A stretch of 64,000 nt of DNA from Candidatus Latescibacterota bacterium. GTDB taxonomy: Bacteria; Latescibacterota; UBA2968; UBA8231. The notes under the pieces were generated by a model that searched no databases, was not told where the DNA came from, and worked only from the letters and a program-made list of their open reading frames with translations. This document shows, piece after piece, positions 1,719-35,624 of the stretch (within the stretch, counting starts at the first letter, position 1; each line of letters begins with the position of its first letter). The stretch lies in the NCBI GenBank assembly GCA_963422735.1, contig OY730476.1, positions 3,232,001 through 3,296,000 on the forward strand, read 5' to 3'. Made by a program: the position numbers and the translations under genes.

Positions 1719-1720
1719 CG

Positions 1721-4863: not shown

Positions 4864-5539
4864 GCATATCGCGCAGTATGTCGATTTCCCGATTGTTGAG
4901 CCCGCTATCGACGACATTGGTCTGGGTTTCGGCGATATACGTGGCCGAGACCACGCGGGCGAATTCGACAAAGCCCTTGATCCCCTGCTTGTCGTTGGGA
5001 TCCCGTATCACCAAGGCGCGATAGCGGCCGGTGTCCATAGCATAGACATCTAGTATCTCCAAGCCCATGTCGATTTTATGCTCGGACGTGCGGCTGATCC
5101 CCAAGTTCGCTATTAACCCAATGACCGGCTCCAGCGCCTCTTGGAGCGTTTGTGGGTTGATCTGTCCGACTTAGAGCATATTCGCTATGCTGGTCGAGCG
5201 AGCGATGATGGTGCGCGTGGAGAACGCCGCGGTAGCTTGCACCTGATCCATGCGGGCAGCGGCAGCGCGCACTTGGCGGCGGATCATCGGGCGTTTGCGT
5301 TGGGGGATCTTGCGCAGCTCCAGTGCCTTGGTCAGGCGCGGTTGGCGTTTGACGAATTTGGTGGTTAGCGGCCGGGGCACTTTTTCGGCCTGCTGCTGGA
5401 AGGGGTTGAGCACGACCAAGATCGCGTTCAGCAGTACGGCGATCCCCAGCGACAGCCAGAAAAACTTGCGCAGCGGGCTGAGCAGAGCATTGAGGTCCAA
5501 GCGAGCGGTGGTGTGCACAAAACGCGACGGTCGGTTCAT
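4853..5539 (-). pseudogene. Truncated membrane-anchored protein (resembles N-terminal part of DUF4159-type proteins)
   Basis: ORFs 5171-5539 and 4784-5104 share one frame separated by a single TAA; PLTTKFVKRQPRLTKALELRKIP and MDTGRYRALVIRDP..KGFV motifs; the similarity ends at ILRDMLNEW where it meets the ALS remnant. Confidence 0.6.
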
Positions 5540-8560: not shown

Positions 8561-10084
8561 ATGCCCTGCTCGCCCGCGGATCGCATCGCCATACTCGCCC
8601 TCCTTTCAATCGGGGGATGCGGCGAAGTGCGGCAAGAACCGCCAACAGGCGATCCACTGCTCGCGGTGGGGAGGGCCTATTTGGATCAGGGCCAGTACGA
8701 CCAAGCCGCGGCCGTGTACCAAGAGGCCGTCCGCCTCGATTCGCTGTCCCGCGACGCTCATTTTTACTTAGGCTTGGCGCATTTGCAGCGCAAGAGCACG
8801 GCTGCGGCCGCGCTCTTTGCACGGGCCATTGCACTGGATTCGACGTATATTCCTTCCTACCACAACTTGGCCATCGCCCACCTCGAAGCAGGCCGCTACT
8901 CGCAAGCTATAGAGGCGGTAGAAGCCGCGTTGCGCTTCGATCCCCAATCGCCTAGCTCCTATCGCCTGTTGGCCTTCTTGCACAAGGAGCAGGGGCGATA
9001 CGAGCGCGCCGAAGAGGCCCTGCTAAGGGCGCTTTACATCGCCCCAAAAGATGTGGAAGCGCGGCAGGCCCTAGCCTTGCTCTACAGCCAACAGGGCCGC
9101 ACTGAGCGTGCGGAAGAAGTTTTGGTGGAAGCGGTCGAGTTGGCGCCAGAGCGAAAAGAAATCTGGCGGGACATGGGAAGGCTCTTATTAAACGAGAAGC
9201 GGTACGACGAAGCAGCGCAGGCGCTCAACCGGGCCGTAGCGCTTGACGCCAACTACGGCGCGGCGTACCACGACTTGGCGAATTTGTATTCGGCTCAGGG
9301 CCGCTACGACGAAGCCGAAGCCATGCTCGTGCGCCTAGAAGGGTTATTCGACTTGGCAGATCGGGAAGAGACTTTGGAAAAGGTGCTGGAGAGAGATCCC
9401 GGCAATGTGGAGGCGCGGTTGGCTCTGGGCCGAGCGCAGACGCGCTTGGGGCGCTACGCAGACGCGCTGAGCACGTACAAGGACGTACTCAGCCGCGAAC
9501 CCGAACACGTTGACGCGTTGGCTACGGTGGTCCAGCTCCACCTGCGGCAGGGCGATGTCGAGCGCGCCGCGCACTTGGCCGGCAAAATCGCTGCGTACGA
9601 GCCTCGGGGCCGGCGTGCGCCTGAAGCGCATTTTACCATGGGATTTGCCCATGTCCAAAAGCAGCGTTGGGCCGAAGCCGAAGCCGCGTTTTCTCGCGCC
9701 TTGGACATCGACGCTTGCTACGCCAAGGCGCACAATGCTTTGGGCAATGTCTATGCCTTGCGGGGCGACTTGGAAAAAGCCATTAGCACTTATCGGGCCG
9801 CCCTCGATTGCGACGCCGAGCTGCGCGACGCGTACTACGGATTGGGCATGGCCTTGGCTCGGCGCGAGTCCTTGGCGGAAGCCATCGCTCAGTTCGAGGA
9901 AGTCGTGCGGCGCGATTCCACTCATGCGCGCTCCCACTACGCGCTGGGCCAAGCCTACGAAAAACAGGGCGCGGCCTCGGCCGCACGCCTCGCCTACGGG
10001 GCCTTTGTCCGGCACTGGCGCGGTGACGAGAAGGTGCTGGCGGCGGCTCAAAGCCGCATTGCACACTTGCAACCCCCCCAATAG
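8561..10084 (+). CDS. Tetratricopeptide-repeat protein, probable lipoprotein
   Basis: Hydrophobic N-terminus ending SIGGC; many 34-aa TPR units (e.g. AYHDLANLYSAQGRYDEAE, AHNALGNVYALRGDLEKAI). Confidence 0.9.
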   Translation: MPCSPADRIAILALLSIGGCGEVRQEPPTGDPLLAVGRAYLDQGQYDQAAAVYQEAVRLDSLSRDAHFYLGLAHLQRKSTAAAALFARAIALDSTYIPSYHNLAIAHLEAGRYSQAIEAVEAALRFDPQSPSSYRLLAFLHKEQGRYERAEEALLRALYIAPKDVEARQALALLYSQQGRTERAEEVLVEAVELAPERKEIWRDMGRLLLNEKRYDEAAQALNRAVALDANYGAAYHDLANLYSAQGRYDEAEAMLVRLEGLFDLADREETLEKVLERDPGNVEARLALGRAQTRLGRYADALSTYKDVLSREPEHVDALATVVQLHLRQGDVERAAHLAGKIAAYEPRGRRAPEAHFTMGFAHVQKQRWAEAEAAFSRALDIDACYAKAHNALGNVYALRGDLEKAISTYRAALDCDAELRDAYYGLGMALARRESLAEAIAQFEEVVRRDSTHARSHYALGQAYEKQGAASAARLAYGAFVRHWRGDEKVLAAAQSRIAHLQPPQ

Positions 10085-10238
10085 ATTTACAATCGCACAG
10101 AGAAAGGAGGTCGTTGCCTAAGTAAGTGCAGTGAAACGTCCCACTTGCGGCCGTCAGGCCGTGCAACGAAAGCGTTTTTTATTTTTATACTAGATATATG
10201 CCCCGCCGTGGCGGGCGTTTTAACTAAAACCAAGGAGG

Positions 10239-11189
10239 ATGATTTTGAAAAAAATCACTGTTTTGCTCGCACTGGCCTTGTGCGTGGGCGTCGTCGCTCC
10301 GGCTACGGCGCATGTGCCCGAAGGCGCTGTGCGTACGGCCTTCCAGTGGCCGGCGGGCCTTGAGCCAACGCTGGACGGCGATCTGTCCGAATGGTCGATC
10401 GTGCCCGAAGACTACTCGATTGCCTTTGCCGATCACATCGAGTTCAACGGCGAAAAGCCGGCCGACTTCGGCGACTTGAACTTCCGCGCCATCGTCGGCT
10501 GGAGCGAATCGACCAACAGCCTCTACTTCATGATGGAGCGCTTTGACGACTTCTACGATCGCGACGCCATGGGCGGCGTGGCTGGCGGCGACGATAGTTG
10601 GGAAATGCACGTCGATGGCGACCACGGCGGCGAGCAGATGCGCTTCGGCAGCGCTGACATAGAGGACGAGGAAGAGCGCACCTTGGCCCAAGGCCGCTGG
10701 GCGCAGTCCTACCACACCCGCTTCCCGAACCTCGGTCCCGACGGCCAAGAGAGCTGGTCGTGGTTTTGGATGACCCAAGCGCAGTGGCACGACGAGCTGC
10801 CCTACGCCGACCACGGCTTCCGCTTGGACGGCCAAATCGGCGGTGGCGAGGCCACGGCCTTTATCGAGGTGCGGCGCCAGGCTTGGGACGACTTTCTCTT
10901 TAACGACCCAGACGGCAGCGTCATCCACGACTACAACGAGGGCGAGATCACCGGCTTGGGCTGGGCGGTCTTCGACAGCGATGTAGCCGGTGCCGACGGC
11001 GGCGTTGGTCAGGACACCGAGCACTCCGGCCAGTGGTCTCTTTCGGGCGCCAGCGATGTGTGGAAAACCACGGCTTCGGCCACGGATTTCCTGCTAGCAC
11101 CCGTTGATCCGCGCGTCGATTTCAGCGCGATCGAGAGCGCGATCGAGGAGAATAGCTGGGGTCGCATCAAGTCTGCCTACATCCAGTAA
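10239..11189 (+). CDS. Secreted acidic CBM9/DOMON-like protein with C-terminal SWGRIK tail
   Basis: Signal peptide (ATA-H), PTLDGDLSEW, IVGWS...LYF..ERFDD, DDSWEMHVDGDHGG; ends SAIEENSWGRIKSAYIQ; RBS AAGGAGG. Confidence 0.7.
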   Translation: MILKKITVLLALALCVGVVAPATAHVPEGAVRTAFQWPAGLEPTLDGDLSEWSIVPEDYSIAFADHIEFNGEKPADFGDLNFRAIVGWSESTNSLYFMMERFDDFYDRDAMGGVAGGDDSWEMHVDGDHGGEQMRFGSADIEDEEERTLAQGRWAQSYHTRFPNLGPDGQESWSWFWMTQAQWHDELPYADHGFRLDGQIGGGEATAFIEVRRQAWDDFLFNDPDGSVIHDYNEGEITGLGWAVFDSDVAGADGGVGQDTEHSGQWSLSGASDVWKTTASATDFLLAPVDPRVDFSAIESAIEENSWGRIKSAYIQ

Positions 11190-11215
11190 GTGGGCAGTGT
11201 CTAGGATGCAAGGAC

Positions 11216-11250
11216 AAGGGGGGATGGGCTAGTTCCATCCCCCCTTCTTC
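11216..11250 (+). terminator. Strong intercistronic hairpin (leaky terminator or mRNA-stabilising stem)
   Basis: AAGGGGGGATGG-N7-CCATCCCCCCTT followed by a weak U-tract CTTCTT, just before the next RBS. Confidence 0.7.
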
Positions 11251-11264
11251 TTGGAGGTGCCATT

Positions 11265-13214
11265 GTGAAAAAGTTGCAGCGCACGACGCGGCTCATCGCG
11301 GCCCTGTTGGTAGTAGTCGGCGGCCAGCCAAGCGCGGCCTTGGTCGTCTATCGCATCGGCGGCGAGGACCTCCCGCCTCCGGCTGAGGTAGAGGCCGGTG
11401 CCGAGTTCCGCCAGTTGAGCTGGGCCGACTTGGACAAGAATTTAGGCGGCGAGAGCTTTGGGCTCGCGCTCAGTGAGCAGATTAGGCCCTTCTTCTACAA
11501 CGAGAGCGATAATATGGCGACGACCCTGAACGGGGTCGGCGGCAATTTCCAGCACGGCGCGTACAATGGCTTTGAAGATGTCGGCGACGAGCTGCGGATG
11601 GTGACCGACGGGGACCCGACGACGTTTTTCTTGGAGACCCGTCCGAGAGAACACGCTCATAACTTCCATGGCACGGCTTTTTTCTTTGATCTCGGCGGCG
11701 ACTTTGCGACGCACTTGATTCGCTTTATCCCGCAGGCAAGCAGTGAACGCTCGGTCGCCCACGTCATCGTCGCCGCGCAGACCGATGCCGGGGGCGGCGT
11801 GGATGAAATTGAATTCGTCGGAGCGAGTGCGCTTAGCCGGTCGCTGAGGGATCCCAAGCAGAAAAAGGGCATTGAGCTAAAGGTGGTCGCGGAAATCCGG
11901 GAAAACAAAAATCCGCAGCTCGACATTGAGCTAGACGGAATGCCCATCCGCTATTTGATGATCCACGTGATGCCCCAAAATGAAATATGGGACTTGGCTG
12001 AGCTGGAGGTGTACGGCGGCGGTTTCCAAGGCTCGGCCTCGTACCAGTCCAATGTCCTCGACCTAGGCGAATTTTCCAATTTGGGCTGGGTGCGTTGGGC
12101 AGGGCAGCAGGACGAAGGGGCGCAAGTGGAGATCCGCTCTCGCGCCGGTGGCGACGAGACGCCGCTCGTATACTGGCGCAAGACTTTCCGCGGCGACGAG
12201 CAGGTACCCTTTGGCGAGGACGGCAAACTGCTAACCCGCAAAAGCTATGGCCGCTTGGGGCCGATCGTGCGCGGGGCCATCACCGACGACACCGCCCAGT
12301 GGGAGCTGTGGTCGTCGCCGTACGAATTCGCCGACAGCGTGGGGGTGGCCCTGCGGGCGACGCGCTCCCACCGCTACGTGCAGTTCAGGGTAGAATTCAA
12401 ATCTTTCGGCCAAGCTGGCGGCCAGCTCGGCTATCTCGAATTCGCCGTTTCCCCGCGCTTGGTAACCGGCTTAGTCGGCGAGGTTGATCCTTGGCGGGCC
12501 GCAGTGGCTGAGGAACGCACTTTCACCTACGCATTGCGCCCGACAATTGAACCCGGCGACCAAGGATTTGACGGTTTGGACCTGCGCTTGGTCGGCGGCC
12601 GGATCGTCGGTGTGGAGGCGGTGCGCCTCAGCGGCGTACCCGTGGCGGATTTCAGCGTAGTGGCCGAGGATGCCGGCGTAGTCGTGGGTTTCCCGCGACT
12701 GGATGTCGCGCGCAGCGGCGAACTGCTCGAAGTGGATGTGCGCGCCGAAATTTTTCGCTTTGGCGCGAGCTTTGAAGGCCGGGTGATCGACAGCACAGTG
12801 CCGGGGGAAATCGGGCAGCTCGTGGCCGCTGGCGAGGCCAACGAGTTAGTGGACGGCAACCAACTTTTGGTACAGGCGATGACCCTAGACGATCAAGTCT
12901 TAGGGACAGTGTCGCTGAGCGTCGCGGCATTTACGCCTAACGGCGACCGGATCAACGACCAAGTGGAGATCACCTACGAACTGCTCAAAGTGACCGAGTC
13001 GGTGCAGGTGGAGGTGCTGGTGCGTGATTTGAGCGGCCGCTTGGTGCGGCGCGTGTACTCAGACGCCGATGGCGCAGGTCGGCATCCGCGCCAATGGGAC
13101 GGACTGGACGAAGCCGGCCAGCAGGTCGCCCCCGGTCTTTACATCTGCCAAGTTGAGGTCGAGAGTGGTGGGGAACGCCAAGTGCAAATGCGGCCCATTG
13201 CCGTCGCCTATTGA
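11265..13214 (+). CDS. Secreted protein, galactose-binding-like region plus C-terminal FlgD-Ig / T9SS type-B-like tail (paralogue 1)
   Basis: Signal peptide; TDGDPTT...FDLGG, AELEVYG.GF, WSSPY, FTPNGDRIND, DLSGRLVR, WDGLDEAGQQVAPGLY; ends VAY. Confidence 0.8.
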   Translation: MKKLQRTTRLIAALLVVVGGQPSAALVVYRIGGEDLPPPAEVEAGAEFRQLSWADLDKNLGGESFGLALSEQIRPFFYNESDNMATTLNGVGGNFQHGAYNGFEDVGDELRMVTDGDPTTFFLETRPREHAHNFHGTAFFFDLGGDFATHLIRFIPQASSERSVAHVIVAAQTDAGGGVDEIEFVGASALSRSLRDPKQKKGIELKVVAEIRENKNPQLDIELDGMPIRYLMIHVMPQNEIWDLAELEVYGGGFQGSASYQSNVLDLGEFSNLGWVRWAGQQDEGAQVEIRSRAGGDETPLVYWRKTFRGDEQVPFGEDGKLLTRKSYGRLGPIVRGAITDDTAQWELWSSPYEFADSVGVALRATRSHRYVQFRVEFKSFGQAGGQLGYLEFAVSPRLVTGLVGEVDPWRAAVAEERTFTYALRPTIEPGDQGFDGLDLRLVGGRIVGVEAVRLSGVPVADFSVVAEDAGVVVGFPRLDVARSGELLEVDVRAEIFRFGASFEGRVIDSTVPGEIGQLVAAGEANELVDGNQLLVQAMTLDDQVLGTVSLSVAAFTPNGDRINDQVEITYELLKVTESVQVEVLVRDLSGRLVRRVYSDADGAGRHPRQWDGLDEAGQQVAPGLYICQVEVESGGERQVQMRPIAVAY

Positions 13215-13226
13215 GGAGCAGGGGTC

Positions 13227-15722
13227 ATGTTGAATGCTGCGTTGTTGCTGAGCGTATTGTTGGGCGTTGTCGCCGCTTGGGGACAGGGCCATACCATCTC
13301 CGGGAATAAGGTCGTCGTCGAGCGGCAGACGCATTGGCAGCAGTGGATTTTTCCCGCCGGTACGCTCGACATGGACCAAACCGGGGCCGTGCGTCCCCAC
13401 TTCGCGTCCAAGAACATACTGGCAACCGCAGACATCGCGGCGTTTATCAAGCGCGGCAAGGGCTCGGAGGACGCGACCCTGCTCGACGCCCTCAACGCGG
13501 GCACTCGGGCCGCGGATCTGGCCCACCTTTTCGACGGGGACTTGAGCACCTATTGGGAACCCGATCCGGCGAGCCCGCTGCGCCAATGGTGGTTCGAGGT
13601 CGATCTGGGGCGGCTGGTGGCGGCCACCCACATCCGGCTCAAATTCGTCGGCGAGGAGCTAGGCGATCCCTTCCTGCAATTCGTGGTCTTGACCTCGGAC
13701 GGAAGCGAGGTTACAAAAGGTCAGCGCAGATTCAACCAAGTCTTCCGCACCTTGAAGTCGAACAAGGATCAGCGAGAATTTGAAATCGAGTTGGGTCCCA
13801 CGCGCCTTGATAGAGAAGGGCGCATGGTGAGCGACTACATCCGCTTCGTGCGGGTGACGATCACCGACACGGATAGCACGCGCGCCGCCAAGGTGTCGGC
13901 TGAACAATACAACCAGCTAGCGGCCGCGGATCGGGGCGCGGTGGATTTTTACAAAAAGGCCGGCGCAGGCCAAGTACAGGTGAGCGAGGCCACGTACGAG
14001 GTGGTTGACCCCGCGTTGCGCGGTGAGATCCGCCGCTACCGCCGCGAGCGCCCGCGGCTGGCCGAGCTGGAGGTCCAGACGCTCGGGGAAAACATCTCGC
14101 TGGGATTGGTGGAGCGCAAAGGCGTCGCGCTGCTCACCTTCTTGGACAACGCGCCCGCGACGGCCTTCTTCGACGGCCTCTTCGAGACGTCCTTGGCCTT
14201 TACCAGCACCGACGAGATACGGGAATTATTCTTCGACTTAGGCTCTTCCTTCTGGATAGACCGGCACCAGATTTACTACGACCGCCAGCGCAGCCGCTTC
14301 CCTAATTACGACTTGCAGACTGCGGACGGCTCGCTGGCTGCGGACGGCTCGCTGGTGTGGACGACGCAGGCCTCGCGGCGCAATCGCGCCACTTCTGGCC
14401 ACTTTACCGGAGATGTGTACGATGTGGATACGTTCGCGCCGACGCCTACGCGCTTTGCGCGAATTTTGTTCTGGGGAGGGGGTCAGTTCAAGCCGCGCGA
14501 GGTGCAGTTCTACGGAGAGGGTTTCCAGCCGGAGGTCGAGTTGGTTTCGCCGCTCATCCGCTTGGGCGGCTCGAAAAACTTGGTCTCAATTGAATGGGAT
14601 GGAGACGCTGACTTGGGGACCTTTGTCGAAGTTCAGACGCGCACGGGCAACGAGCTGGTCGAAGAGTATCGCTACTTCAACAGCGGCGGCGGCGAAGTTT
14701 CGGCCGAGGCATACGCAGGCTTGGGCTTTTTCAGCAAGGGGCGGATCGACACGACGGAAGCCCCCGGGGCCGACTGGAGCGCGTGGAGCTTGCCCTACGA
14801 GGCTTCGGGCGCGGCGATCACTTCTCCAAGCCCGCGCCAATTTCTGTTGCTCAGGGCCCGCTTGCTCTCGGACGACCCGCGCAGCGCGGCTGTGCTGCGC
14901 TCCATTCGGCTCAGCTTCGTCGAGCCGCTCGCCAGCCAGCTTTTGGGCGAGATCGAACCCGGCCTCGTGGGAGCGTTGGGCAAAAAGCAGGAGCTTTCGC
15001 TTTTCATCAAACCGAATTTCGCTCCCCAGAGCGTGGGGTTTGACGAGGTGCAGATAAGGGTACCGGACAACATGGCCTTGGATTTTCGCGGACTGCGGCT
15101 GGGGCGCGAAGCCCAATGGGAGAGCGCGGAACTAGCGGCCTCCGCAGAAGTAGTGGCGACCGCCCCAGACTCTTTGTGGGTGCGGTTAAACGAGGTCGTC
15201 GGCCCATCCTCAGCCGATCTGATTGAGGTGCAATTCGCCACCGCCCTCTACTTGCCCGGTGCCGTGTTCAAGGCGTCGTTGGGTCATTCGGCCATGGAGA
15301 ACTCTTGGCAGCGGGTTGATCCAGCGGATGCAACGGAATTGGCGACCGGGCAGGGGATGCTGTTGGTAGGCCCAGAAGGCGGCCGACACGTCTTGGGTGA
15401 CCTGAACGTTGGCAGTGGGGTCGCGACGCCGAATGGGGATGGGATCAATGACGAGTTGGCGTTCTCATTCGCGGTTACCAAGCTGACCGGCACCCAGCCG
15501 CTCCACGTGCGGATTTACGACCTAGCTGGCCGGCTGGTGAGGCACTGGCGAGAGACGCGGCCCTTGGTCAGCGGCGAGTACGCCCTGCGCTGGTCGTGCG
15601 AGGATCAATCCGGCGCACTGGTCGCCCCCGGACTGTATCTGCTAGCGGTAGAAGTGGTGCCCAACGACGACTCGCGAGTGGAGCGCACCGCGAGGCAACA
15701 CCTCATTCACGTGGCGTATTGA
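13227..15722 (+). CDS. Secreted protein, two galactose-binding-like regions plus FlgD-Ig / type-B-like tail (paralogue 2)
   Basis: Signal peptide; FDGDLSTYW..WFEVDLGR, EVQFYGEGF, WSAWSLPY, SPSPRQF, TPNGDGIND, YDLAGRLVR, VAPGLY; ends VAY. Confidence 0.8.
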   Translation: MLNAALLLSVLLGVVAAWGQGHTISGNKVVVERQTHWQQWIFPAGTLDMDQTGAVRPHFASKNILATADIAAFIKRGKGSEDATLLDALNAGTRAADLAHLFDGDLSTYWEPDPASPLRQWWFEVDLGRLVAATHIRLKFVGEELGDPFLQFVVLTSDGSEVTKGQRRFNQVFRTLKSNKDQREFEIELGPTRLDREGRMVSDYIRFVRVTITDTDSTRAAKVSAEQYNQLAAADRGAVDFYKKAGAGQVQVSEATYEVVDPALRGEIRRYRRERPRLAELEVQTLGENISLGLVERKGVALLTFLDNAPATAFFDGLFETSLAFTSTDEIRELFFDLGSSFWIDRHQIYYDRQRSRFPNYDLQTADGSLAADGSLVWTTQASRRNRATSGHFTGDVYDVDTFAPTPTRFARILFWGGGQFKPREVQFYGEGFQPEVELVSPLIRLGGSKNLVSIEWDGDADLGTFVEVQTRTGNELVEEYRYFNSGGGEVSAEAYAGLGFFSKGRIDTTEAPGADWSAWSLPYEASGAAITSPSPRQFLLLRARLLSDDPRSAAVLRSIRLSFVEPLASQLLGEIEPGLVGALGKKQELSLFIKPNFAPQSVGFDEVQIRVPDNMALDFRGLRLGREAQWESAELAASAEVVATAPDSLWVRLNEVVGPSSADLIEVQFATALYLPGAVFKASLGHSAMENSWQRVDPADATELATGQGMLLVGPEGGRHVLGDLNVGSGVATPNGDGINDELAFSFAVTKLTGTQPLHVRIYDLAGRLVRHWRETRPLVSGEYALRWSCEDQSGALVAPGLYLLAVEVVPNDDSRVERTARQHLIHVAY

Positions 15723-15733
15723 GGGAGGTTGCG

Positions 15734-17899
15734 ATGCACTGGTTGCCGATCGCGCTGCTGTTGCTAGCGGCACTGCAAAGCATAGCCGAGACGCGGAGCA
15801 TTTCCATAGGCGGCGCGAGCGGATCGTCTTGGCAAGAGGGTGGGGGCCAGATACAGGCAATTTTCCCAACTGGGGCCAGAGATGTCGAGCGCGGCAACAC
15901 CCCGGGCGGCGTGATCGATTTTGACCCCGAGGGTCGGGTGGGTTGGATTTTTCCGCAGAACGTCGTCGAGGGCACCAATCTAGCCCTTGGAATACTCGGG
16001 CGCGGCGGCTCGGTCACCTCGCCGACGGTCCTCGAAGCGGGCATTGAGTCGCAGCTAGAGACGATGATCGACGGCGACGGCAAAACGGCCTTGGAGCGCA
16101 AGAACGTGGCCGTCATCCGCGGCATGGCCATGGACTTTGACCTAGGTGCTCGCTTTGGGGTCAATCGCGTCCAATTTTTCCCGCGCAATGGCCACCCAGA
16201 TTTTCCCGCGGCTCCTTTCCAAGAGGAATTCATTCGCGGCTACGAGCTGTTTTTCAACGACGGCAGCGAGGAGACGCAAGGCGCGGGCGGCCCAGAATGG
16301 CGCTCGTTTCGGTTGGACGCTGCCAACCAAGACGCGCTGGTCGATCTGAGCATTCCCCCGCAATTTGTGCGCTTCATCCGCTTGCAGTCGCGCACGAGCA
16401 GCGGTTTTGAGATCGCCGAGTTCCGCGTCTTTGGCACTGGTTTCGTGCCCACGGCTGAATACATATCCAACATATTCGATCTCGGCCCAGATTTGGGCTT
16501 GTGGGGGACCATTCGCTGGGTGGAGGAAAGCGTCGGCCCGGCTGGTTTCGCCAGTGCGCGTGCGCGAACCCGCACCGGCTTGGACGACAGTCCTTTAGTC
16601 TATACCCGGCGCTTCTTCTTTGAGGGGACCCAAGTCGAGGTGCCGTGGAAGAAGAATGCCGCAGTTGAGGCCGAGGGCGGCGAGGTCAATCTCGACCAGG
16701 TCGATCTGGAGAGGGCGCGTGCGCTCTTTGGCGCGCTGCCGCTGGGTCAGCGCAATGCCATCTCGCTGTCGCTGGACGATTACAAGGGCTTGGGTGCCGA
16801 GCGGGGCAATGTGGTGGCCGATCTAGACGCTTGGAGCCCGTGGTCCTCGCCCTACGAGTTAGGGACCCTGTTGACCGAGGCAGAGATCGAGGACAGCCAA
16901 TTGGGCGTGCCGATTGTCTCGCCCGGGCCGAGGCGTTACATACAGTTCCGCATCGACTTTTTCAGCGAGGACTTGGAGGCGGCCACAGGCATCGGCCCGC
17001 TGACCTTTACCGTGGCTACGCCGCCGCCGGCCGCACAGATTCTCGGAGAGATCTTTCCTCGTCAGGTCGATTTGGGCAAGCCGGTGGATTTCGTCTATGC
17101 GGTGATGCCGACTTCCATTCGGCCAAGTGTAGATACGGGCTTTGACAGCTTTGAGATCGCCACGCCGGTGCGGGTACAGGCCATTGAGTCCATCGAAGTC
17201 ATCGATGCCGCTGGGCAGGTTGAGGCAGCGGATTTTTCAATGGCCGATCTTTCCGCGCTGCCGGCCACCGACGAGACCGGACGCTTTGCCATTGAGTCGG
17301 TCGATGCGCGTCGCTTTCGCGTGCGCTTTCCCATCATTGCCGAAAGCGAGTTGGCGACCGGGCGGACGGCCCAGCTCAAAATCCGCTTTCGCAGCCGCGT
17401 GTTGCGCTACGGCACCAAGTTCGCCGGTTTTGCCTTCAACAGTGCCGAGGGGGACGTGGGGCAGGAGGTCGTTGCCGGCAACGTGGCCGCGTTGGCTCCT
17501 AGCGACGACGATATTGTGGCTGTTGGCTTGGAGACGAACCGGGGCCTTTCGGTGGATGTGCCACTAGCCAGCAGCAGTGCCCTGCTGATCAACGTGCGCA
17601 CCGAACCCCGTCCCTTTAGCCCCAACGGCGATGGAATCAACGACGCGACGCACGTGTACTACGATCTGAGCCGTTTGGCCAGCCCGGCACCGGTCAATGT
17701 GGAAATCGTCGATTTGGCCGGACGCTGGGTGCGCCAGCTATTTTCCGGCCTCCAGGGCGGCGGCTCGTACGCCATGCCTTGGAGTGGTGTGGATGAGAGC
17801 GGGGCCGCGCTACCGCCGGGCATTTACTTAGTGCGCGTAACGCTGGCCAGCGATGCGGGCCGCGAAAGCGCGGTTAGGGCTGTCGAACTAGTGTACTGA
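15734..17899 (+). CDS. Secreted protein, galactose-binding-like region plus FlgD-Ig / type-B-like tail (paralogue 3)
   Basis: ATG 15734 after GGGAGG; IDGDGKT..FDLGARF, EIAEFRVFGTGF, WSPWSSPY, SPGPRRYIQ, FSPNGDGIND, LPPGIY; ends LVY. Confidence 0.8.
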   Translation: MHWLPIALLLLAALQSIAETRSISIGGASGSSWQEGGGQIQAIFPTGARDVERGNTPGGVIDFDPEGRVGWIFPQNVVEGTNLALGILGRGGSVTSPTVLEAGIESQLETMIDGDGKTALERKNVAVIRGMAMDFDLGARFGVNRVQFFPRNGHPDFPAAPFQEEFIRGYELFFNDGSEETQGAGGPEWRSFRLDAANQDALVDLSIPPQFVRFIRLQSRTSSGFEIAEFRVFGTGFVPTAEYISNIFDLGPDLGLWGTIRWVEESVGPAGFASARARTRTGLDDSPLVYTRRFFFEGTQVEVPWKKNAAVEAEGGEVNLDQVDLERARALFGALPLGQRNAISLSLDDYKGLGAERGNVVADLDAWSPWSSPYELGTLLTEAEIEDSQLGVPIVSPGPRRYIQFRIDFFSEDLEAATGIGPLTFTVATPPPAAQILGEIFPRQVDLGKPVDFVYAVMPTSIRPSVDTGFDSFEIATPVRVQAIESIEVIDAAGQVEAADFSMADLSALPATDETGRFAIESVDARRFRVRFPIIAESELATGRTAQLKIRFRSRVLRYGTKFAGFAFNSAEGDVGQEVVAGNVAALAPSDDDIVAVGLETNRGLSVDVPLASSSALLINVRTEPRPFSPNGDGINDATHVYYDLSRLASPAPVNVEIVDLAGRWVRQLFSGLQGGGSYAMPWSGVDESGAALPPGIYLVRVTLASDAGRESAVRAVELVY

Positions 17900-17912
17900 T
17901 TAGGGAGGGCTA

Positions 17913-20669
17913 ATGAGAGACCTACGGTGGATACTCGCTGCCTTGCTCGTCGCGGCGATGAGCGCCCATGCCCAAGGCCGGCGCTGGGGAGCGGAAATTA
18001 CCTATGAGCCTCGGGGGCCGGGTGTGCTCTTCGACGCGTTGGATCCAGCGGTTAAGCGCTGGTACGTGCCGCAGGAGCTGTTTGCCGACTACGGTTGGCA
18101 GCAGTGGCAGTACACCAACTACGCGCGCGACGCGTACGAGCGCTACGTCAGCACCACGATTGAAGGCTCTCCGTTCTACGATCTGTACGGCAACTACTTG
18201 ACGCGCGGCTGGCTCATCTACGACTGGAGCCAGAACCAGCCCGTGCAATTTGGTTCGTCCATCTTCAAGGATCAGCGCTTTAACAATTGGTTCAACGCGG
18301 TCACTATTAGCTCAGACTCGCAGGGGCAGTTCTACTATGCGATCACGGTGGGCGAGCGAATCCGCACGACCCTGACTCCGCTCACCTTCTCTAAGCCTGC
18401 CTTCAGCGGCGTGCAGATGGACTTTGCCGCGGACAAGTACGAGGGCACCCTGCTCTTTTCGCGGGTGAGCCGTCCGGTCATCGGCAGTACGCCCAACGAC
18501 CCTAGTTCCGTCTCCAATGCCACCAACCTGATGGCTGGCCGCGCCGTGGTCCAACTCGGCGATTTCGTGGCTGTGGGGGCCAATTTAGTCAATGCGCGCA
18601 ACTCCACCACGGTGGCCGATGCCTTTGAACGCAACCCCTTCGTCGGTACCCTCGCTGCCAATCAGGGCAGCCTGCCGATCTCGGGCATTGCCTTGGTCCT
18701 CAGCGACGACTCGCCCGAGGACGGTCGGGGTGGGGCGACCCTATTTTCGCACGACCTCGTCTTGACGAGCGAGGATCCAGATACGGGGGAGCGCGAGCAA
18801 TTTAGGCTCCGCGATGTGGTCGCCGATCCGGCGCGGTGGCCCGTGGTCTCGGGCGGAGCGCCCAAGGAAGGGGCTTTAGCTGCCGACGGCGACGAGAAGA
18901 TCGTCATCAACTACGACTTCGCGGATATCGCCTATACCGGCCCACGGCCCTCGGAGATCGTCGCGGTGCAGTTCGACTTAGTCTTGGCTAATGACTACAA
19001 GGTGCAGGTTTGGTCCGATCGGCAAACGGGCAGCCGCGCCCTGCCGGTCCTGCCGCTGACGGGCCAGGACATTGAGGATCAGTCCCCGGCGTTGTTCGAC
19101 ATCCTCAGTGCCGAGGGCAATGTGCAGGACAATTCCAACCAGCAGCGGGTCGTCTTCGACTACGGATTGCCGTCGTCCCGCTTGATCTACGGCTTCACCC
19201 TAAACGCCACGGATATCAAGGGCTTAGACCTATACGCGGAGTTCGATGTCAGCCGCTCATACAGCCAGTACCCTAACCCGGCGCGCCAAGCAGCCGCTCG
19301 CTCGCTAACCACGTACGCCCGCGACGCCGAGGCTTGGATGGTCAACGCCGCAAAAGTAGCCTCCCCGTTTTACTTTTTTGGCGAGGCATACAGCATGGAC
19401 CCGGATTACTCGACGAGCTCGTTTATCGTGGACGACAACGGGGGCATTACCTACGACAATCCGCGCACCTCCCTGTACGAGTTGGTTGACGACAACGACG
19501 ACCAAGACCGCTCGGCCGATTGGTTCCGCTTCTCGCAGGGCGGTGGCGATGTGGCCGTCTTCCCGGGGTGGGACGAGAACAACGACTTTGTCTCCGACTT
19601 CAACCAAAACGACAATCGTATCCTCAACAACCGCATCCCGGATTACGAAGAACCTTTCTTTCGCTATGCGGCCGATCGCCCAGAGTTTTTGTTTGGCATC
19701 GACCTAAACAACAACGGTTGGATCGACCGCTTTGAAAACGACGACTTGCCTGACTACCCCTACAAGATCGATCGCCGGGGCTACAACCTGTACGCCGGCA
19801 TTTTCCTCGACCCGCACACTCGGCTGACGTTGGGCAGGCTGAGCGAGAAGAGCATGGCTTCCGACGGGCGCAACCGGGCCGCGTATGGCCTGCTGACCTA
19901 CGACCGCGACTTCACTTGGGGCCGGTTGCGGGCCTTTGAGATGCTGCGGCGCGTCGAAGACGATATCGCCGACGACCGGCGCGAGATGACGCCGCACCTC
20001 GAAGTCAACTCGCTCGCGCTGGTGCGCGACATCCTGCCGGCGCGGGACACGTGGATCAACACGACCTATGTACAGCTCGATTACCAGCCGCTCGACAACC
20101 TAAACGCGAGCAACAAGTTCAATTACGAGCGTTTTTGGCAGCAGGGCCGTGCGTTCAAAAGCCGCGTCAAAGGCCCAGTTCTCAATCGAGGCAGCCACTT
20201 GATTGGATTGATCAACAAAGCGGATTACACCTTTGGCTTGGCTGGCTTTAGGTTGCAGCCCAAGGTCAAGAGCGAGTATCTCAACCAGACCGCGCTCGAA
20301 GCGCGCGCCGAGGATCGCGAGGAGTGGGTCGGCACAGGCATCGTGCTGCTGAGCCACCCGCTGTTGAGCCAGTCGCTGGTGGAAGGAGGCGTCGAATTTT
20401 CTCTGTTCCGGGACTTGATTCTCAAAGAGGACGAGCAGCTCGCCAACGGCCCGGCCGGGCCTACGGGCGACTTCCGCAACTTGGTGCTGGCCCTGCAATG
20501 GTCCAGTGCCGGTTCCTACTTGGGCTACCGGCTCACGACGCAGTTTGGCTTTAGTTACACGCGCCTGTGGGAGGAGCGGGTGATTATCGGCAGCGAAGGC
20601 TTGGAGCGGACGAATGAAATCAGCGCCTTTAGCACCAGCTTCATAACCGTGTACGCGGGGCTGGGATAG
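17913..20669 (+). CDS. Large exported protein, putative outer-membrane beta-barrel with D/N-rich loops (paralogue A)
   Basis: Signal peptide (AHA-Q); alternating hydrophobic/polar strands in the C-terminal third, ending FITVYAGLG; VDDNDDQD, GWDENNDFVSDFNQND, DLNNNGWIDRFEND. Confidence 0.6.
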   Translation: MRDLRWILAALLVAAMSAHAQGRRWGAEITYEPRGPGVLFDALDPAVKRWYVPQELFADYGWQQWQYTNYARDAYERYVSTTIEGSPFYDLYGNYLTRGWLIYDWSQNQPVQFGSSIFKDQRFNNWFNAVTISSDSQGQFYYAITVGERIRTTLTPLTFSKPAFSGVQMDFAADKYEGTLLFSRVSRPVIGSTPNDPSSVSNATNLMAGRAVVQLGDFVAVGANLVNARNSTTVADAFERNPFVGTLAANQGSLPISGIALVLSDDSPEDGRGGATLFSHDLVLTSEDPDTGEREQFRLRDVVADPARWPVVSGGAPKEGALAADGDEKIVINYDFADIAYTGPRPSEIVAVQFDLVLANDYKVQVWSDRQTGSRALPVLPLTGQDIEDQSPALFDILSAEGNVQDNSNQQRVVFDYGLPSSRLIYGFTLNATDIKGLDLYAEFDVSRSYSQYPNPARQAAARSLTTYARDAEAWMVNAAKVASPFYFFGEAYSMDPDYSTSSFIVDDNGGITYDNPRTSLYELVDDNDDQDRSADWFRFSQGGGDVAVFPGWDENNDFVSDFNQNDNRILNNRIPDYEEPFFRYAADRPEFLFGIDLNNNGWIDRFENDDLPDYPYKIDRRGYNLYAGIFLDPHTRLTLGRLSEKSMASDGRNRAAYGLLTYDRDFTWGRLRAFEMLRRVEDDIADDRREMTPHLEVNSLALVRDILPARDTWINTTYVQLDYQPLDNLNASNKFNYERFWQQGRAFKSRVKGPVLNRGSHLIGLINKADYTFGLAGFRLQPKVKSEYLNQTALEARAEDREEWVGTGIVLLSHPLLSQSLVEGGVEFSLFRDLILKEDEQLANGPAGPTGDFRNLVLALQWSSAGSYLGYRLTTQFGFSYTRLWEERVIIGSEGLERTNEISAFSTSFITVYAGLG

Positions 20670-20674
20670 CTATT

Positions 20675-23533
20675 ATGAACGCCAGCTTGCGCTGCGTCGG
20701 TGCTCTCTGCTGGGCCGCGCTGCTTTGGGCCGCGCCGCTCAACGCCCAGCGCGAGGATTACGGCAGCCGCTTGGGCCGCATCGAAGCGGGCCAGCCGATC
20801 TACTATTCGTCCGGCACGGGGCTGCGCATGGAAGCCGTCTATCCCTCGTTGCAGAAGTGGTATCTGCCGCAGGAAGTCGCCGGCGAGTACCGCCGGCAGT
20901 GGAGCTACACCAACTACGCGCGGGACCCCTACCGGCGCTATCTCGATCCCGCCTTGGAGGGCGGGTACTTCTACGACCTCTACGGGCGCTTCTTGAACAA
21001 GGGCTGGTTGATCTACGACTGGCGTCAGGTCCAGCCGATCGGCTCGGGCGGCTCGGGCATCTTGCAGGCCGGCCAATACGGCTCGTGGTTCAACAACTTG
21101 GTCCTTGCCGGCGACACCAAGGGCCAGCACTACCTCTCGGTACTCATCGGCGACGAGATCTTCGCCATGCTGACGCCCATGACTTTTCGCAAGACCGCGT
21201 ACAATGGGGTTATGTTCAACTACGCGGCCGATCGCCTGACGGCCACCGTGCTCATGTCGCGGATCAACCTGCCGCTCTTCCGCACGGACCCCTTTCCCGT
21301 GACCGAGGACAATTTCACCAACCTCATCGGCGGTCGCATAGTCTGGGACCTTGGTGCTACGACGCGGATCGGCGGCACCTTTCTCAACGCACACAACGGT
21401 CGGACGGCCTCTGACCGCTTTGAGGGCCATCCGCTCAAGGGCAAGCTGACGAGCGGCCAGCTAGACGGACGCATCGACCGCATCGTGGTGCGGCTAACCG
21501 ACGATTCGCCCGAAGACGAGGGCGGCGGGGCCGTGCTTTTTAGCAGCGACATTGAGATTGAGACGCGGATCGGCGAGCGCGACACCCTGCTGATTGGCAG
21601 CCAGATTGGCTTCGCGCCGCGCATCATTGGTGGGATCGAGCGGGGTGGTTTTTTGACGGCCGAGGGCCGGGGCGAGGCGAGCCAGATTTTGCTCGAATAC
21701 GCGTTTTCCGACGACGATCCGGCGGTCATGGATCTAGAGGCCGTAGTGCCGAGCGCGGATTTGGTCAACCAAATCAGCCGGGTGCGCTTCCGCTTGGTGT
21801 TGGGCAACGACTACAAGGTAGAGGTCGCGTCCAACCGCCAGACCGACAATAATGCCAGCGGCGAGCAGCCGCAGTTTCGCACGGTCGCCCGGGCTGAGGG
21901 CAACGTCTGGGACAACTCCAACCAGCGAACGGTCGTCTTCGACTACGGACTGCCGACGGCGACGCAGGTGGCCGGGCTGACGCTACAGGCCGACGATTGG
22001 GCCGGCTTCCGCGTGTACGGCGAATTCAACCTCAACCACCAGTTCACCCAGTACCCGACGCGGACGCGGGATACGCACAAGGCGTCCTCGGGCATTGGCG
22101 GAGATCGTGCGGCCCTCGGCTGGACGTTCAATGTCTCGCGCCGTTTGGCATCGTTTTTCTTTTTTGGCGAGGCATTCGGCCTAGACGCCGAATACGACAC
22201 AAGCCCGCGCTTTGTCGATAGCAGCGGCCGGGTGGATTGGTCAAACGACGACGAAGCGCGGGCTCGGCACGTGTACGACTTTGTCGATGACAACGACGAC
22301 AACGACCGCATCAACGACCAAAAGCGCCGCTTTGACGACGGCCGCACCGCCGACCAGCGCGGCGTCCGCGCACGCACCTTTGAGGGTTTTGCCGACGACG
22401 CGGTCTTCCCCGGCCTCGACGAGAACAACGATTTCATTTCCGATTTCAATCAGAACGATCTGCGCGAGCGTCCCAATTTCTTGCCCGACTACGAAGAGCC
22501 TTTTCTCCGCTACAATGTCGATCGGCCCGAGTATCTCTTCGCCCTCGACCTGAACAACAACGGCTGGGGCGATCGCTTTGAAAACGACGAAGAGCCCGAC
22601 TATCCCTACAAGCGCGACCGGCGCGGGTACAACGCCTATCTAAGCGCGGATCTCCGGCCCGAGCTTAAGCTGACGACTGGACAGGTGTGGGAGCGCAAGC
22701 CGACGACGGGGGAGCGCAATCGCACGTACTATGCCCTGCTTGCGTACGAACAGAGCTTTGCCGGATGGGGCATGCTGACGGCGTATAATGCGTTCAAATG
22801 GGTCGCCGACGCGATCGCCGAAGACTTGGTGCAGTGGATTCAACTGCGCCCCGTGCTCGGTCGCCCGAGCAATTCCCCCGGCAGCATGATCGCCATCCGC
22901 GATCCGCTGGGCATGGGCGACGCCTTGGTCAACAAGCTGTGGATAGGTGCTGAGCGCCGCCGCCGCGATGGCTTCCAGAGCGCAAACAAGCTGCTGTTTG
23001 AGTTCATGCAGCAGCGGCGAGAAGCTGCCGTTGACCGCGATGGCCGCCGCTTGCAGCGCAAGGCGCGGCGCTTGGGGCTGATCAACAAGGCCGAGTACCC
23101 AGTGCATCTGGGCCGCATAACCGCGCTACCGCGCCTCAAGCAAGAGTTGTTTATGGACGATACCCCGTTCAATATCGAGCGGCAGCTAGGCACTCCGACG
23201 GCCGAGCGCCGCGATTGGAGCGCGATGGTCTCGGTATTGGTAAAGGTGCCCTTTATGAAACGCTCGGTCGTACAACTCGGCACAGAGTACCTGCGCTTCC
23301 GCGACATGGTCGTGGACGAGACCACAGTACCCCCGGGCGATTCCACCGGGGACTACGACGAGACGTCCTTTGCCGTGCAATTGTCCAATACGACATCGTA
23401 TTTGGGCTATAAGCTCATGTCCCAAGTGGGACTGCGCATCGACAAGCGGCAGATAGAGCGCGCGGCGCAGAAGGCTCGCACCGAAACCAGCGGTTTGACT
23501 TTTGTCACAGTACAAGCAGGGCTTAGTGATTAG
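20675..23533 (+). CDS. Large exported protein, putative outer-membrane beta-barrel with D/N-rich loops (paralogue B)
   Basis: Signal peptide; shares KWYLPQE, YTNYARD, FYDLYG..L.KGWLIYDW, LTDDSPED, VFDYGLP, PDYEEPF, DLNNNGW.DRFEND and GLINKAEY blocks with 17913-20669. Confidence 0.6.
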   Translation: MNASLRCVGALCWAALLWAAPLNAQREDYGSRLGRIEAGQPIYYSSGTGLRMEAVYPSLQKWYLPQEVAGEYRRQWSYTNYARDPYRRYLDPALEGGYFYDLYGRFLNKGWLIYDWRQVQPIGSGGSGILQAGQYGSWFNNLVLAGDTKGQHYLSVLIGDEIFAMLTPMTFRKTAYNGVMFNYAADRLTATVLMSRINLPLFRTDPFPVTEDNFTNLIGGRIVWDLGATTRIGGTFLNAHNGRTASDRFEGHPLKGKLTSGQLDGRIDRIVVRLTDDSPEDEGGGAVLFSSDIEIETRIGERDTLLIGSQIGFAPRIIGGIERGGFLTAEGRGEASQILLEYAFSDDDPAVMDLEAVVPSADLVNQISRVRFRLVLGNDYKVEVASNRQTDNNASGEQPQFRTVARAEGNVWDNSNQRTVVFDYGLPTATQVAGLTLQADDWAGFRVYGEFNLNHQFTQYPTRTRDTHKASSGIGGDRAALGWTFNVSRRLASFFFFGEAFGLDAEYDTSPRFVDSSGRVDWSNDDEARARHVYDFVDDNDDNDRINDQKRRFDDGRTADQRGVRARTFEGFADDAVFPGLDENNDFISDFNQNDLRERPNFLPDYEEPFLRYNVDRPEYLFALDLNNNGWGDRFENDEEPDYPYKRDRRGYNAYLSADLRPELKLTTGQVWERKPTTGERNRTYYALLAYEQSFAGWGMLTAYNAFKWVADAIAEDLVQWIQLRPVLGRPSNSPGSMIAIRDPLGMGDALVNKLWIGAERRRRDGFQSANKLLFEFMQQRREAAVDRDGRRLQRKARRLGLINKAEYPVHLGRITALPRLKQELFMDDTPFNIERQLGTPTAERRDWSAMVSVLVKVPFMKRSVVQLGTEYLRFRDMVVDETTVPPGDSTGDYDETSFAVQLSNTTSYLGYKLMSQVGLRIDKRQIERAAQKARTETSGLTFVTVQAGLSD

Positions 23534-25205
23534 ATCGAAGCACGCGGTATATGGGCTGTGGATTCTTGTTTTCTGGAGCTGCGGCACACCAGCCGAGGAC
23601 TTGGTGGTGGCCCGAGTCGGCGAGGTGGAAATTGACGCCCCCCAATTGCTGGAGTTTGAAGAGAAGATACACCGCGATCTGCGGAGCAAAAAGACGGGTG
23701 CTGACGCCTATTTCGACTACTTGCAGACCATGATCGACAAGGAGCTCATGGTCCTAGAGGCCAAAAAGCGGGGCCTCGACCAGCGCGCCGACTTCCGCCG
23801 CAAGATGGACAAATTGTATAGCGACCGCGTCTTGCGCCGCTTTTTGCAGCTTGAGGTGCATGACAAGATCGTCCACACGCAAGAGGAAATGCTGGCTCAC
23901 CAGCGAGAGACGGGCCGCGATCGCGCCGTGCAGGTGCGGCGCATCGTCGTAGCCACAATACAAGAGGCTCAAGCAATCAAGGCGGCCTTGGAGGGCGGCG
24001 ACGATTTCGACGCATGGGCCAGCCGCAGCTTGCTCGCGGCGACCCAGCTAGAGGAGGGCCGCTACCTGCTCAAGGACGAGCTGTATCCACCCATCTTGCA
24101 GGAGGAGGTCTTTCCGCTGGCACTGGGTCAGTTCTCGGAGCCGGTGCTCTTCAACGACCAATTCGGCGTGTACGAGGTGACGGCCGAAGTGCCGGTCGCG
24201 CTCTCGGTCGTGCAATCGGTAATCGAGGCCGAGCTGATCGCGGAGAAGGTGCCGCCGGCCGTGCAAGCCCTGTCGGCCCGCTTGCGGCAGGAGCTCGACT
24301 TTGTGGTTTACGCCCAAGTCTTGGAGCGCGTACGCGGGCGCATCGGGCAGGGCGCCAAAGTGTTTTCTGCAAAGGAGCGCGAGCAGCCTATCTACGAGCA
24401 CGAGAGCGGCGTCTTTACCACCGGCGATCTGCTCAACTTCGCCCGCGAGCTAGGCGTCGGTTTTCCAAAGGACGCGCCCGAGCAGTTCGACTGGTTCGTC
24501 CATGACATCGTCGAGCCGCGCGCCCTGCTTTTGGCCGGTGCATATACGGCGGGCGTTGACCGCGAAGAAGGAGTGGTCGCTTGGTTCCAAAAGCGGCAGC
24601 TATCAAACCTGCTAGTGGCCATGCGCCGGGACGTGGTCGATGGTGTCTTCGCCAGCCGCGAAGAAGCTCGTGCGTTCTACGACCGCCACTCAGACCTTTT
24701 CCGCCCCCTCGAATCGATCGCCGTGCAGGAAATTTTGCTCCGCACCGAGGAGGAGGCACTGGCGCTGCGCGAGGAAGTGGCGCGCGGCGGCGACTTGGGT
24801 GCGCTCGCCGCCGAGCACACCTTGCGCCGGCGCGGCAGAGCTAACCAAGGCGAGTTCCACCTGCATCCTTGGGAGAAGCAACAGTTCGTCCCGCTTTTTG
24901 AGGCGGCCCAAGGGCAAAAAATCGGCGCACTCATCGGCCCTATCGCCTTGGAGGTCGCTGCCGCCGAGGTGCTAAGCCTCGAGCCAGTCAGCGGCCCGTA
25001 CTACGCCATTTTCCGGTTGCTCGATTCGACGATCGACGCCGCACCCAAGCCCTTCGCGCAGGCCGAGCGCCGTGCTCGGGCGCTGATCCGCCGCCAAAAG
25101 CAGGAGCGACTCTTCGGACAGTTCATCATCCAATTGCGCCACCAATACGGGGCGCAAATCGAGGTTTTCCGCGAGCAGGTGGAGGCCCTCGTTCGCAATA
25201 CTTAA
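23526..25205 (+). CDS. PpiC/parvulin-type peptidyl-prolyl isomerase (SurA/PrsA-like lipoprotein, two rotamase domains)
   Basis: GTG start overlapping the previous stop; FWSC lipobox-like; VARVGEVEI; VQVRRIVV..EAQAIKAALEGGDDF and VQEILL..EEEA..LREEVARGGDLGALAAEH. Confidence 0.8.
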   Translation: MIRSKHAVYGLWILVFWSCGTPAEDLVVARVGEVEIDAPQLLEFEEKIHRDLRSKKTGADAYFDYLQTMIDKELMVLEAKKRGLDQRADFRRKMDKLYSDRVLRRFLQLEVHDKIVHTQEEMLAHQRETGRDRAVQVRRIVVATIQEAQAIKAALEGGDDFDAWASRSLLAATQLEEGRYLLKDELYPPILQEEVFPLALGQFSEPVLFNDQFGVYEVTAEVPVALSVVQSVIEAELIAEKVPPAVQALSARLRQELDFVVYAQVLERVRGRIGQGAKVFSAKEREQPIYEHESGVFTTGDLLNFARELGVGFPKDAPEQFDWFVHDIVEPRALLLAGAYTAGVDREEGVVAWFQKRQLSNLLVAMRRDVVDGVFASREEARAFYDRHSDLFRPLESIAVQEILLRTEEEALALREEVARGGDLGALAAEHTLRRRGRANQGEFHLHPWEKQQFVPLFEAAQGQKIGALIGPIALEVAAAEVLSLEPVSGPYYAIFRLLDSTIDAAPKPFAQAERRARALIRRQKQERLFGQFIIQLRHQYGAQIEVFREQVEALVRNT

Positions 25206-25301
25206 GAGTCAGTGGCCAGTGGTCAGTCCCCGCACCGCGCCCTATGGGTGCTCACTAAGCTAGCACGAGGAATTTTAAGGACTCTTCTAAGGAGGCTAAA
25301 A

Positions 25302-35622: not shown

Positions 35623-35624
35623 CG

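Follow-up and report, generated by a model that had tools for sequence, protein, structure and literature searches.

An undescribed multi-copy outer-membrane gene cassette in a Latescibacterota genome and its possible role in glycan capture and import

Gene layout of the cassette

A stretch of 64,000 nucleotides from the genome of a Candidatus Latescibacterota bacterium (GenBank assembly GCA_963422735.1, contig OY730476.1, positions 3,232,001 to 3,296,000), hereafter the window, bears a run of genes for exported proteins, hereafter the cassette. This genome has about twenty copies of the gene set, which is undescribed, and the locus is one of them. The open reading frame (ORF) listing of the whole window places eight ORFs on the + strand which encode, in order, a TPR lipoprotein (8561–10084), a secreted CBM9-fold protein (gene 2; 10239–11189), three tailed proteins of classes A, B and C (genes 3 to 5; 11265–13214, 13227–15722 and 15734–17899), two large barrel proteins, A and B (genes 6 and 7; 17913–20669 and 20675–23533), and a parvulin/SurA-like lipoprotein that is a probable folding helper (gene 8; 23526–25205). 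Genes 1 to 7 are separated by 154, 75, 12, 11, 13 and 5 bp, and the parvulin gene overlaps gene 7 by 32 bp with the TTG start of the longest ORF or by 8 bp with a GTG start at 23526; the parvulin orthologue at locus L074 has 559 residues. A preliminary description of the locus, as eight co-oriented genes with export signals, tightly spaced from position 11265 onward and including one triplicated and one duplicated family, is borne out by these positions and gaps, by signal peptides and two lipobox-like motifs (IGGC and FWSC) read by eye, and by pairwise identities of 26–28% among the tailed proteins and 37% between the barrels. That description overlooked a ninth gene on the same strand (25212–27194), 6 bp 3′ of the parvulin gene, and the many paralogous copies of the locus. 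The GC content of the cassette equals that of the window.

Pfam searches identified TPR and Rotamase matches, an F5/8-type C domain in gene 4, and, on each of the three tails, FlgD_ig together with CHU_C below cut-off; gene 2 and both barrels, searched individually, had no Pfam match. No SusC/SusD, Bam, type II secretion system or Por family was matched over cut-off in the seven non-TPR proteins with Pfam or NCBIfam, in agreement with the preliminary description. The TPR protein departs from it in passing two NCBIfam cut-offs, for the SctY chaperone and a generic TPR domain, both of which are probably generic TPR matches. A sigma-70 promoter and terminator scan returned counts at chance level and missed the hairpin between genes 2 and 3 that is considered below. 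A literature search, with subscription papers and supplements outside its coverage, located no account in which the cassette, the barrel, DUF6785 or the SWG tag is described, and no already characterised system of this composition.

Barrels, tailed proteins and the CBM9-fold protein

The barrels had been presented as putative barrels of ~930 residues. Checked for a soluble fold, barrel A (918 residues) instead models as an outer-membrane barrel, with a predicted local distance difference test (pLDDT) score of 86.8 from 133 aligned sequences. The model has 23 long strands between mature residues 110 and 896 and up to three short strands before them, and therefore 24 strands are likeliest. The strands alternate amphipathically and all 11 turns on one side comprise 2–6 residues. 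The C-terminus of an outer-membrane barrel is periplasmic, and the sides of the barrel were counted on that basis. Both large inserts are accordingly predicted to be extracellular. Insert 1 (residues 213–398, ~18609–19166) is beta-rich, and comparison with the ESM Atlas, with PDB sequences and with the tailed family gave nothing usable; insert 2 (residues 476–600, ~19398–19772) is 30% Asp and Asn and is the most conserved region of the family. The N-terminal segment (residues 1–109) is 22–24% aromatic. The 50 VIA matches listed were all membrane barrels, none of them close (best Z 14, root-mean-square deviation (rmsd) >7), and the Foldseek top ranks were MtrB and SlpA with template modelling (TM) scores of 0.23–0.27. 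There is no solved structure among the sequence relatives of the barrel, a family of 447 proteins at E below 1e-30 in the representative library. The nearest named family in the ESM Atlas, DUF6029 at 0.89, is a lead only. Neither the SusC/TonB-plug families (Pfam/NCBIfam) nor the PorP/SprF families matched the two adjacent barrels or 53 members of the barrel family. In the barrel tree, A and B belong to two old subclades that four cassettes keep side by side; a long branch groups nine divergent barrels. On the modelled fold of barrel A, the barrels are a new family of very large, ~24-stranded outer-membrane barrels without a close known fold.

The class A tailed protein (gene 3) was modelled with a pLDDT of 90. 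A CBM32/discoidin domain (~11499–12026; Z 14.5, rmsd 2.2, 122 residues aligned) is inserted in a split beta domain, and is followed by an Ig domain and a seven-strand tail (~12891–13211) that superimposes on PorU's type IX secretion system (T9SS) tail (6za2; Z 13.1, rmsd 2.1, 99 aligned). A phage-tail-like trimer was entertained for the split beta domain on the strength of one match (9nwi, Z 10.8) and was rejected when further analyses did not support it. Class B is a long form with the F5/8-type C domain and a class A-type tail, and class C is the usual direct 5′ neighbour of the barrel gene: it lies directly upstream in 59 of the 77 cases where the barrel is not preceded by another barrel, and a tailed gene of any class does so in 73. 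The corresponding gap in the window is 13 bp. A tree of 83 tailed paralogues resolves one long and two short classes per complete cassette with mirrored branching. Immediately to the left of the window (C1:3229246-3231684), some 10 kb upstream of the cassette, there is an orphan long-class gene.

The tails carry a type-B-like PNGDGxND motif. Matches of the three window tails to TIGR04131 reached 15.0–16.4 bits, below the cut-off of 35; all 46 class C tails match that model weakly (best E 3e-9). Genome-wide, the strict motif F[TS]PNxDxxND is present in 65 ORFs, which are 63 full tailed proteins and two fragments, and a PNPFN-type tail is present in 38, of which 37 are outside the tailed family. 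The tail motif is thus cassette-specific. SprA and PorU are encoded in the genome along with seven PorV-family matches that exceed the cut-off, and an Ig-like C-terminal domain in combination with these genes is as expected for T9SS cargo of any type. Because the tails have the PorU fold and SprA, PorU and PorV are encoded elsewhere, the cassette is not the self-contained complex that had been proposed. SprA, found in 167 of 168 genomes of the phylum, is here at C1:2394944-2400385 (L027). Genome-wide searches for PorP/SprF, and for GldM and GldN, gave no match with their controls silent; GldK and GldL were not searched. This T9SS may lack the Bacteroidota motor. A complex prediction of barrel A (residues 8–898) with the class C tail scored 0.00 and, as controls were not folded, is evidence neither way.

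The family profile of gene 2 matches the Thermotoga CBM9 structure 1i82 (E 9e-7), and CBM9_1 (PF06452) is detected in nine of 24 family members (best E 1.7e-9), although not in the window's own protein alone. Acidic residues aligned with what we take to be the calcium sites of Thermotoga CBM9 are invariant or nearly so in the family. The mature N-terminus is predicted to be a histidine (10311–10313). Of 49 non-redundant relatives, 26 share it, and each of these has His106 as well; the two residues are a possible metal site. The protein ends in a tag, (S/T)A(V/I)Exx(S/T)WGx(I/V)K (11136–11186), that is a candidate short sorting or docking signal. The core motif falls within the last 35 residues of 36 ORFs, compared to two occurrences in 2.66 million other residues. 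Thirteen of the tagged ORFs are outside the CBM9 family, and about a dozen carriers are unrelated exported proteins (for example C1:2670681-2671271 and 2418902-2419819), and TAV(E)-like words also precede many PNPFN tails. As a DNA pattern the tag was found in 95 of 107 barrel-positive genomes of the phylum and in two of 61 barrel-negative genomes, a co-distribution that represents few independent losses. The two negatives have a single match each, at the level of the reversed control, and the 12 barrel-positive genomes that lack the tag have only weak-scoring, divergent barrels. A separate single-copy, exported protein of 492 residues (1685–3163, + strand), helical in its C-terminal half, matches CBM9_1 weakly (E 0.0012).

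A 12-bp RNA stem-loop occupies the gap between genes 2 and 3 (11217–11245, + strand; z -3.17) and is a candidate stabiliser or partial terminator. Hairpins of -18 kcal/mol or lower follow 22 of 26 CBM9 genes compared to 14 of 83 tailed genes and 45 of 300 random genes; among genes followed by another on the same strand the values were 18 of 21 for CBM9 and 40 of 300 for a sample drawn from 520 controls (p 3e-12). A hairpin that follows a binding-protein gene usually increases the output of that gene, and the arrangement therefore suggests that the CBM9 protein is made in excess. The codon bias of the CBM9 family, with a median at the 80th percentile, agrees with high expression. In four of 15 RNA datasets, contigs of relatives (mostly <95% alike) cover 30, 30, 30 and 25 of 30 bins. 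Contig depth over gene 2 compared to downstream genes was 105.9 versus 8.5–20.5 in dataset X2 and 30.5 versus 2.4–4.1 in X14, and gene 2 is merged with its neighbours in X6 and X9; these are contigs rather than reads, with depth unfit to rank genes and no silent stretch compared, and they were excluded from the evidence.

Cassette copies, phylum range and gene neighbourhoods

Profiles built from in-genome paralogues were searched against 18,068 ORFs at >50% coverage and identified 34 barrels, 84 tailed proteins, 27 CBM9-like proteins and 24 parvulins. The 23 barrel-containing clusters total 383 kb, or 7.7% of the genome. At least three tailed genes are present in 20 clusters, a CBM9-like gene in 21 and a parvulin gene in 19; a single barrel is present in 15, and the pair of barrels in the proposed complex is optional. 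Gene order is shuffled between clusters whereas gene content is kept, and the copies are about 30–45% identical to one another. A set of 79 related loci, mutually related and not independent, was collected from records labelled Latescibacterota or Gemmatimonadetes-type bins. Among the 62 of at least 20 kb, gene content is also conserved, in support of the preliminary interpretation: 57 have at least three tailed genes, 58 a parvulin, 55 a CBM9-like gene, 42 two barrels, 40 a TPR gene and three gene 9. Pairwise identities co-vary among the three tail classes, the barrel and the CBM9 protein (Mantel rho 0.70–0.84) in 17–18 hand-assigned cassettes, five others being omitted as incomplete, merged or divergent and the class labels for the second cassette subgroup being the analyst's choice.

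The TPR and parvulin proteins are looser members of the cassette. The TPR gene, initially ranked as a full member, is peripheral: of 47 such genes in the genome, 25 are near cassettes. The parvulin was described as a dedicated foldase, which agrees with its presence in most loci but not with its weak co-divergence with the other cassette proteins (Mantel rho 0.18–0.41). For gene 9, searches of Pfam, NCBIfam and the PDB gave no match. Its family, of ~630–660 residues, has six full-length paralogues in the genome and also lies 3′ of barrel pairs at loci L049 and L063; gene 9 is probably co-transcribed with the cassette without being a core member.

The barrel was found in 107 of 168 genomes of the phylum, including all 75 other genomes searched from the bacterium's own family, and the tailed family in 104, every one of them barrel-positive. 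Named matches all bear Latescibacterota or Gemmatimonadetes labels; most matches are nameless.

Neighbouring genes in this genome were examined within 8 kb of cassettes, against a background of 10% and with the seed genes excluded. DUF6785 membrane proteins (14/38, p 9e-6) and permeases of the sugar ATP-binding cassette (ABC) type (6/18, p 0.006; a label read from sequence, with no Pfam basis) are enriched near cassettes, as are FG-GAP/ASPIC proteins (23/47) and a small lipoprotein (15/17) that is absent from the window's cassette. Cassette-type loci contain or adjoin three of the four ExbB genes, two PorV-like genes and several DUF4159 proteins that have a membrane anchor at the N-terminus. 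A fragment of 122 residues at 5171–5539 (- strand) belongs to this cassette-neighbouring, membrane-anchored DUF4159 family and is apparently truncated. The divergent barrels occupy a locus type of their own that includes a TPR protein of ~1090 residues (L006, C1:1251240-1272348; C1:1953334-1965049; L012; L113; L125), several examples with ExbB/ExbD, a PorV-like gene, the small lipoprotein and DUF4159. These loci are possibly an energising or assembly module for the whole barrel family.

Divergent barrels are expanded in two relatives, G116 and G117, where SWG tags are nearly absent and tailed partners are few. In G117, 63 barrel matches correspond to ~51 genes, several of them split, alongside one SWG match, and in 11 of 12 barrel windows no tailed, CBM9 or parvulin gene of full length is present. 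Of 134 candidate neighbours, 105 were scanned, with three G041 windows included; among them are BNR-fold proteins, sulfatases, a rhamnosidase, deacetylases, solute-binding proteins and propeller-sensor (two-component) regulators. Clusters of the BNR/sialidase fold lie within 5 kb of a G117 barrel in eight of 22 cases compared to a background of 6.5% (local-shift p 0.0005). BNR was chosen after inspection, and the enrichment was therefore repeated on unseen windows, where it was 4/17 compared to 4.6% (p 0.007).

Other features of the window include a protein of 537 residues (30698–32311, - strand), presumably PcfJ-like, with one paralogue inside another cassette region. A DtxR/MntR-type regulator is divergent from a Mn/Zn ABC transporter operon (33153–38221), both labels being read from sequence, and the two permeases of the operon are apparently fused to DtxR-like domains. 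The fructose-1,6-bisphosphatase-like and dihydrolipoamide-dehydrogenase-like ORFs (43692–44843 and 63298–63963) appear to be frameshifted or partial, possibly due to assembly errors.

Capture and import weighed against other roles

We place at roughly even likelihood the reading that the cassette is a multi-copy, SusCD-independent outer-membrane module for capture and import which is fed by the T9SS and serves in the manner of a polysaccharide-utilisation locus. This proposal joins computed features (folds, gene content, co-divergence, co-distribution, tag and hairpin) to an export route, docking, ligands and transport that we infer. All cassette proteins would cross the inner membrane by Sec, guided by the signal peptides read by eye. 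The barrel, with its modelled fold, would be inserted in the outer membrane, with the parvulin lipoprotein presumably acting as chaperone. Three CBM32-bearing proteins, one of each class, would then exit via the T9SS by means of the cassette-specific tail and may be held on the extracellular inserts of the barrel. The SWG-tagged CBM9-fold protein, in excess, would be the scavenging subunit. The barrel would hand its catch, oligosaccharides or solutes like them, on to transporters of the inner membrane, energised possibly by ExbBD, as the gene neighbourhoods suggest. The diverged copies, ~30–45% identical, would differ in specificity.

A number of observations weigh against capture and import. 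No plug domain or TonB box was recognised in the barrel, the first 60 residues of which are poorly modelled, and no glycoside hydrolase or sulfatase was recognised in the window's cassette. PhyH (5/41) and mandelate-racemase genes (3/62) are not enriched near cassettes, nor are sulfatases clearly enriched near G117 barrels, and the stand-alone barrels of G117 belong to or resemble the divergent subgroup, the function of which may differ. Barrel-positive families do not have fewer TonB-receptor plugs (this genome has 16); replacement of TonB receptors by the barrels was considered and rejected, as the plug counts overlap between families and SusC matches were obtained in 12 of 75 barrel-positive genomes of the family, and thus the barrels do not simply replace TonB receptors. 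CBM9 binds glycan ends between two tryptophans; in gene 2 one of the two aligned with solved CBM9 is kept and one is replaced. The window's own CBM9 gene is at the 37th percentile, with no codon bias for high expression. The co-divergence is explicable by block duplication alone; the genomes are not independent, and the CBM32 and CBM9 folds serve in adhesion too.

The cassette resembles SusC/SusD loci in its dozens of diversified paralogous copies, large barrel core, surface glycan-binding partners and nearby transporters, to which G117 adds carbohydrate-acting enzymes and two-component regulators with propeller sensors. The cassette differs in having neither a TonB plug nor similarity to SusC/SusD; TIGR04056 (SusC) had no match over cut-off genome-wide, barrel A is followed by barrel B and the parvulin without a SusD family match, and its partners, instead of being surface lipoproteins, bear T9SS tails or the SWG tag, with no hydrolase recognised. 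MtrB, Deinococcus SlpA, LptD and ushers are membrane barrels of like size, with a stretch of the SlpA profile in eight of 53 family members, but the fold matches are distant (TM ≤0.27, rmsd >7) and the cassette lacks haem proteins, an SLH domain and pilins. A close parallel is type B T9SS cargo with PorP/SprF as its cognate shuttle or anchor in Bacteroidota (PMC12618676, PMC9143113), where the cargo gene lies directly 5′ of porP/sprF (PMC12618676). A PNGDGxND-type tail motif restricted to cargo beside a barrel, the tailed gene directly upstream of the barrel gene and the presence of SprA are common to both. The cassette differs in its barrel of ~900 residues with two large inserts and no relation to PorP/SprF, in having three cargo classes and a differently tagged fourth protein, in the PorU/FlgD-Ig fold of a tail below the type B cut-off, in barrels that also occur without cargo, and in GldM/GldN not being found (controls silent). 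The cassette is in part like type B T9SS cargo with its cognate barrel and is organised like a polysaccharide-utilisation locus, and it fails the sequence tests for both.

This parallel underlies a rather unlikely alternative in which the barrel, as an outsized counterpart of PorP/SprF in function, collects cognate tailed lectins from the SprA translocon and anchors them, for adhesion to host, particles or matrix and without import. The position of class C directly 5′ of the barrel (59/77), as for type B cargo (PMC12618676), the confinement of the F[TS]PNxDxxND motif to tailed proteins and the lack of a PorP/SprF match in the genome (controls silent) are as expected from display alone. Yet the barrel is ~3 times the size of the PorP family (model length 292) and shows no similarity to it, and the tail has the seven-strand PorU fold instead of the predicted four-strand type B fold, below the TIGR04131 cut-off. 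Moreover, most G117 barrels have no tailed neighbour and lie beside BNR-fold genes; as these barrels recur without cargo beside carbohydrate-acting genes, a receptor or importer fits better than a pure anchor.

Two other roles are less probable. In one, which is improbable, the system is a structural or protective layer at the surface, with calcium-bound barrels that carry a diversified coat for evasion of phage or host, or the His-terminated CBM9 protein binds metal instead of glycan, or the system is a signalling receptor. The conservation of the Asp/Asn-rich insert and the SlpA profile stretch (best E 2.9e-4) could be accommodated by a coat, but that stretch covers ~70–110 residues, far below cut-off, and a coat leaves the transporter and BNR neighbours unexplained; the co-occurrence of the N-terminal histidine with His106 in 26 of 49 proteins, which would suit metal binding, is offset by the presence of His106 in 45 of the 49 regardless (Fisher p 0.04). 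The other role, which we consider very improbable, is that of an usher-like assembly pore with the CBM9 protein as major subunit, the tailed proteins as minor or tip subunits and the parvulin as chaperone. The size and strand number of the barrel, FimD and PapC among the Foldseek matches, the hairpin that suggests an excess subunit and the one-of-each tail classes are compatible with this role. Family searches of the cassette proteins and the 53 barrel members gave no usher, PapD or pilin match. However, the fold matches to ushers are weak (TM ~0.2) and do not exceed those to other barrels, and the inserts are predicted to be extracellular with no periplasmic chaperone-binding domains seen. 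Furthermore, about 12 unrelated exported proteins likewise terminate in the SWG tag and the tails already resemble T9SS cargo.

Within capture and import, the more specific proposal that the barrel is a new class of nutrient importer, present in tens of copies per genome, that works alone in certain lineages and elsewhere with a one-of-each trio of T9SS lectins and an abundant scavenger addressed by a hitherto undescribed 15-residue TAVE..SWGxIK tag is held tentatively and with some doubt.

The widespread, uncultured Latescibacterota presumably subsist on complex polysaccharides, and one study invokes non-specific porins for uptake (PMC4454575). How members of the phylum take up polysaccharides is the question to which the cassette speaks. 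If the proposals are true, T9SS sorting and glycan uptake would reach further than Bacteroidota, by way of a new class of large barrel, a T9SS tail specific to the cassette and a short tag whose distribution follows the barrel, and the barrel family would have expanded across much of Latescibacterota as SusC has in Bacteroidota.

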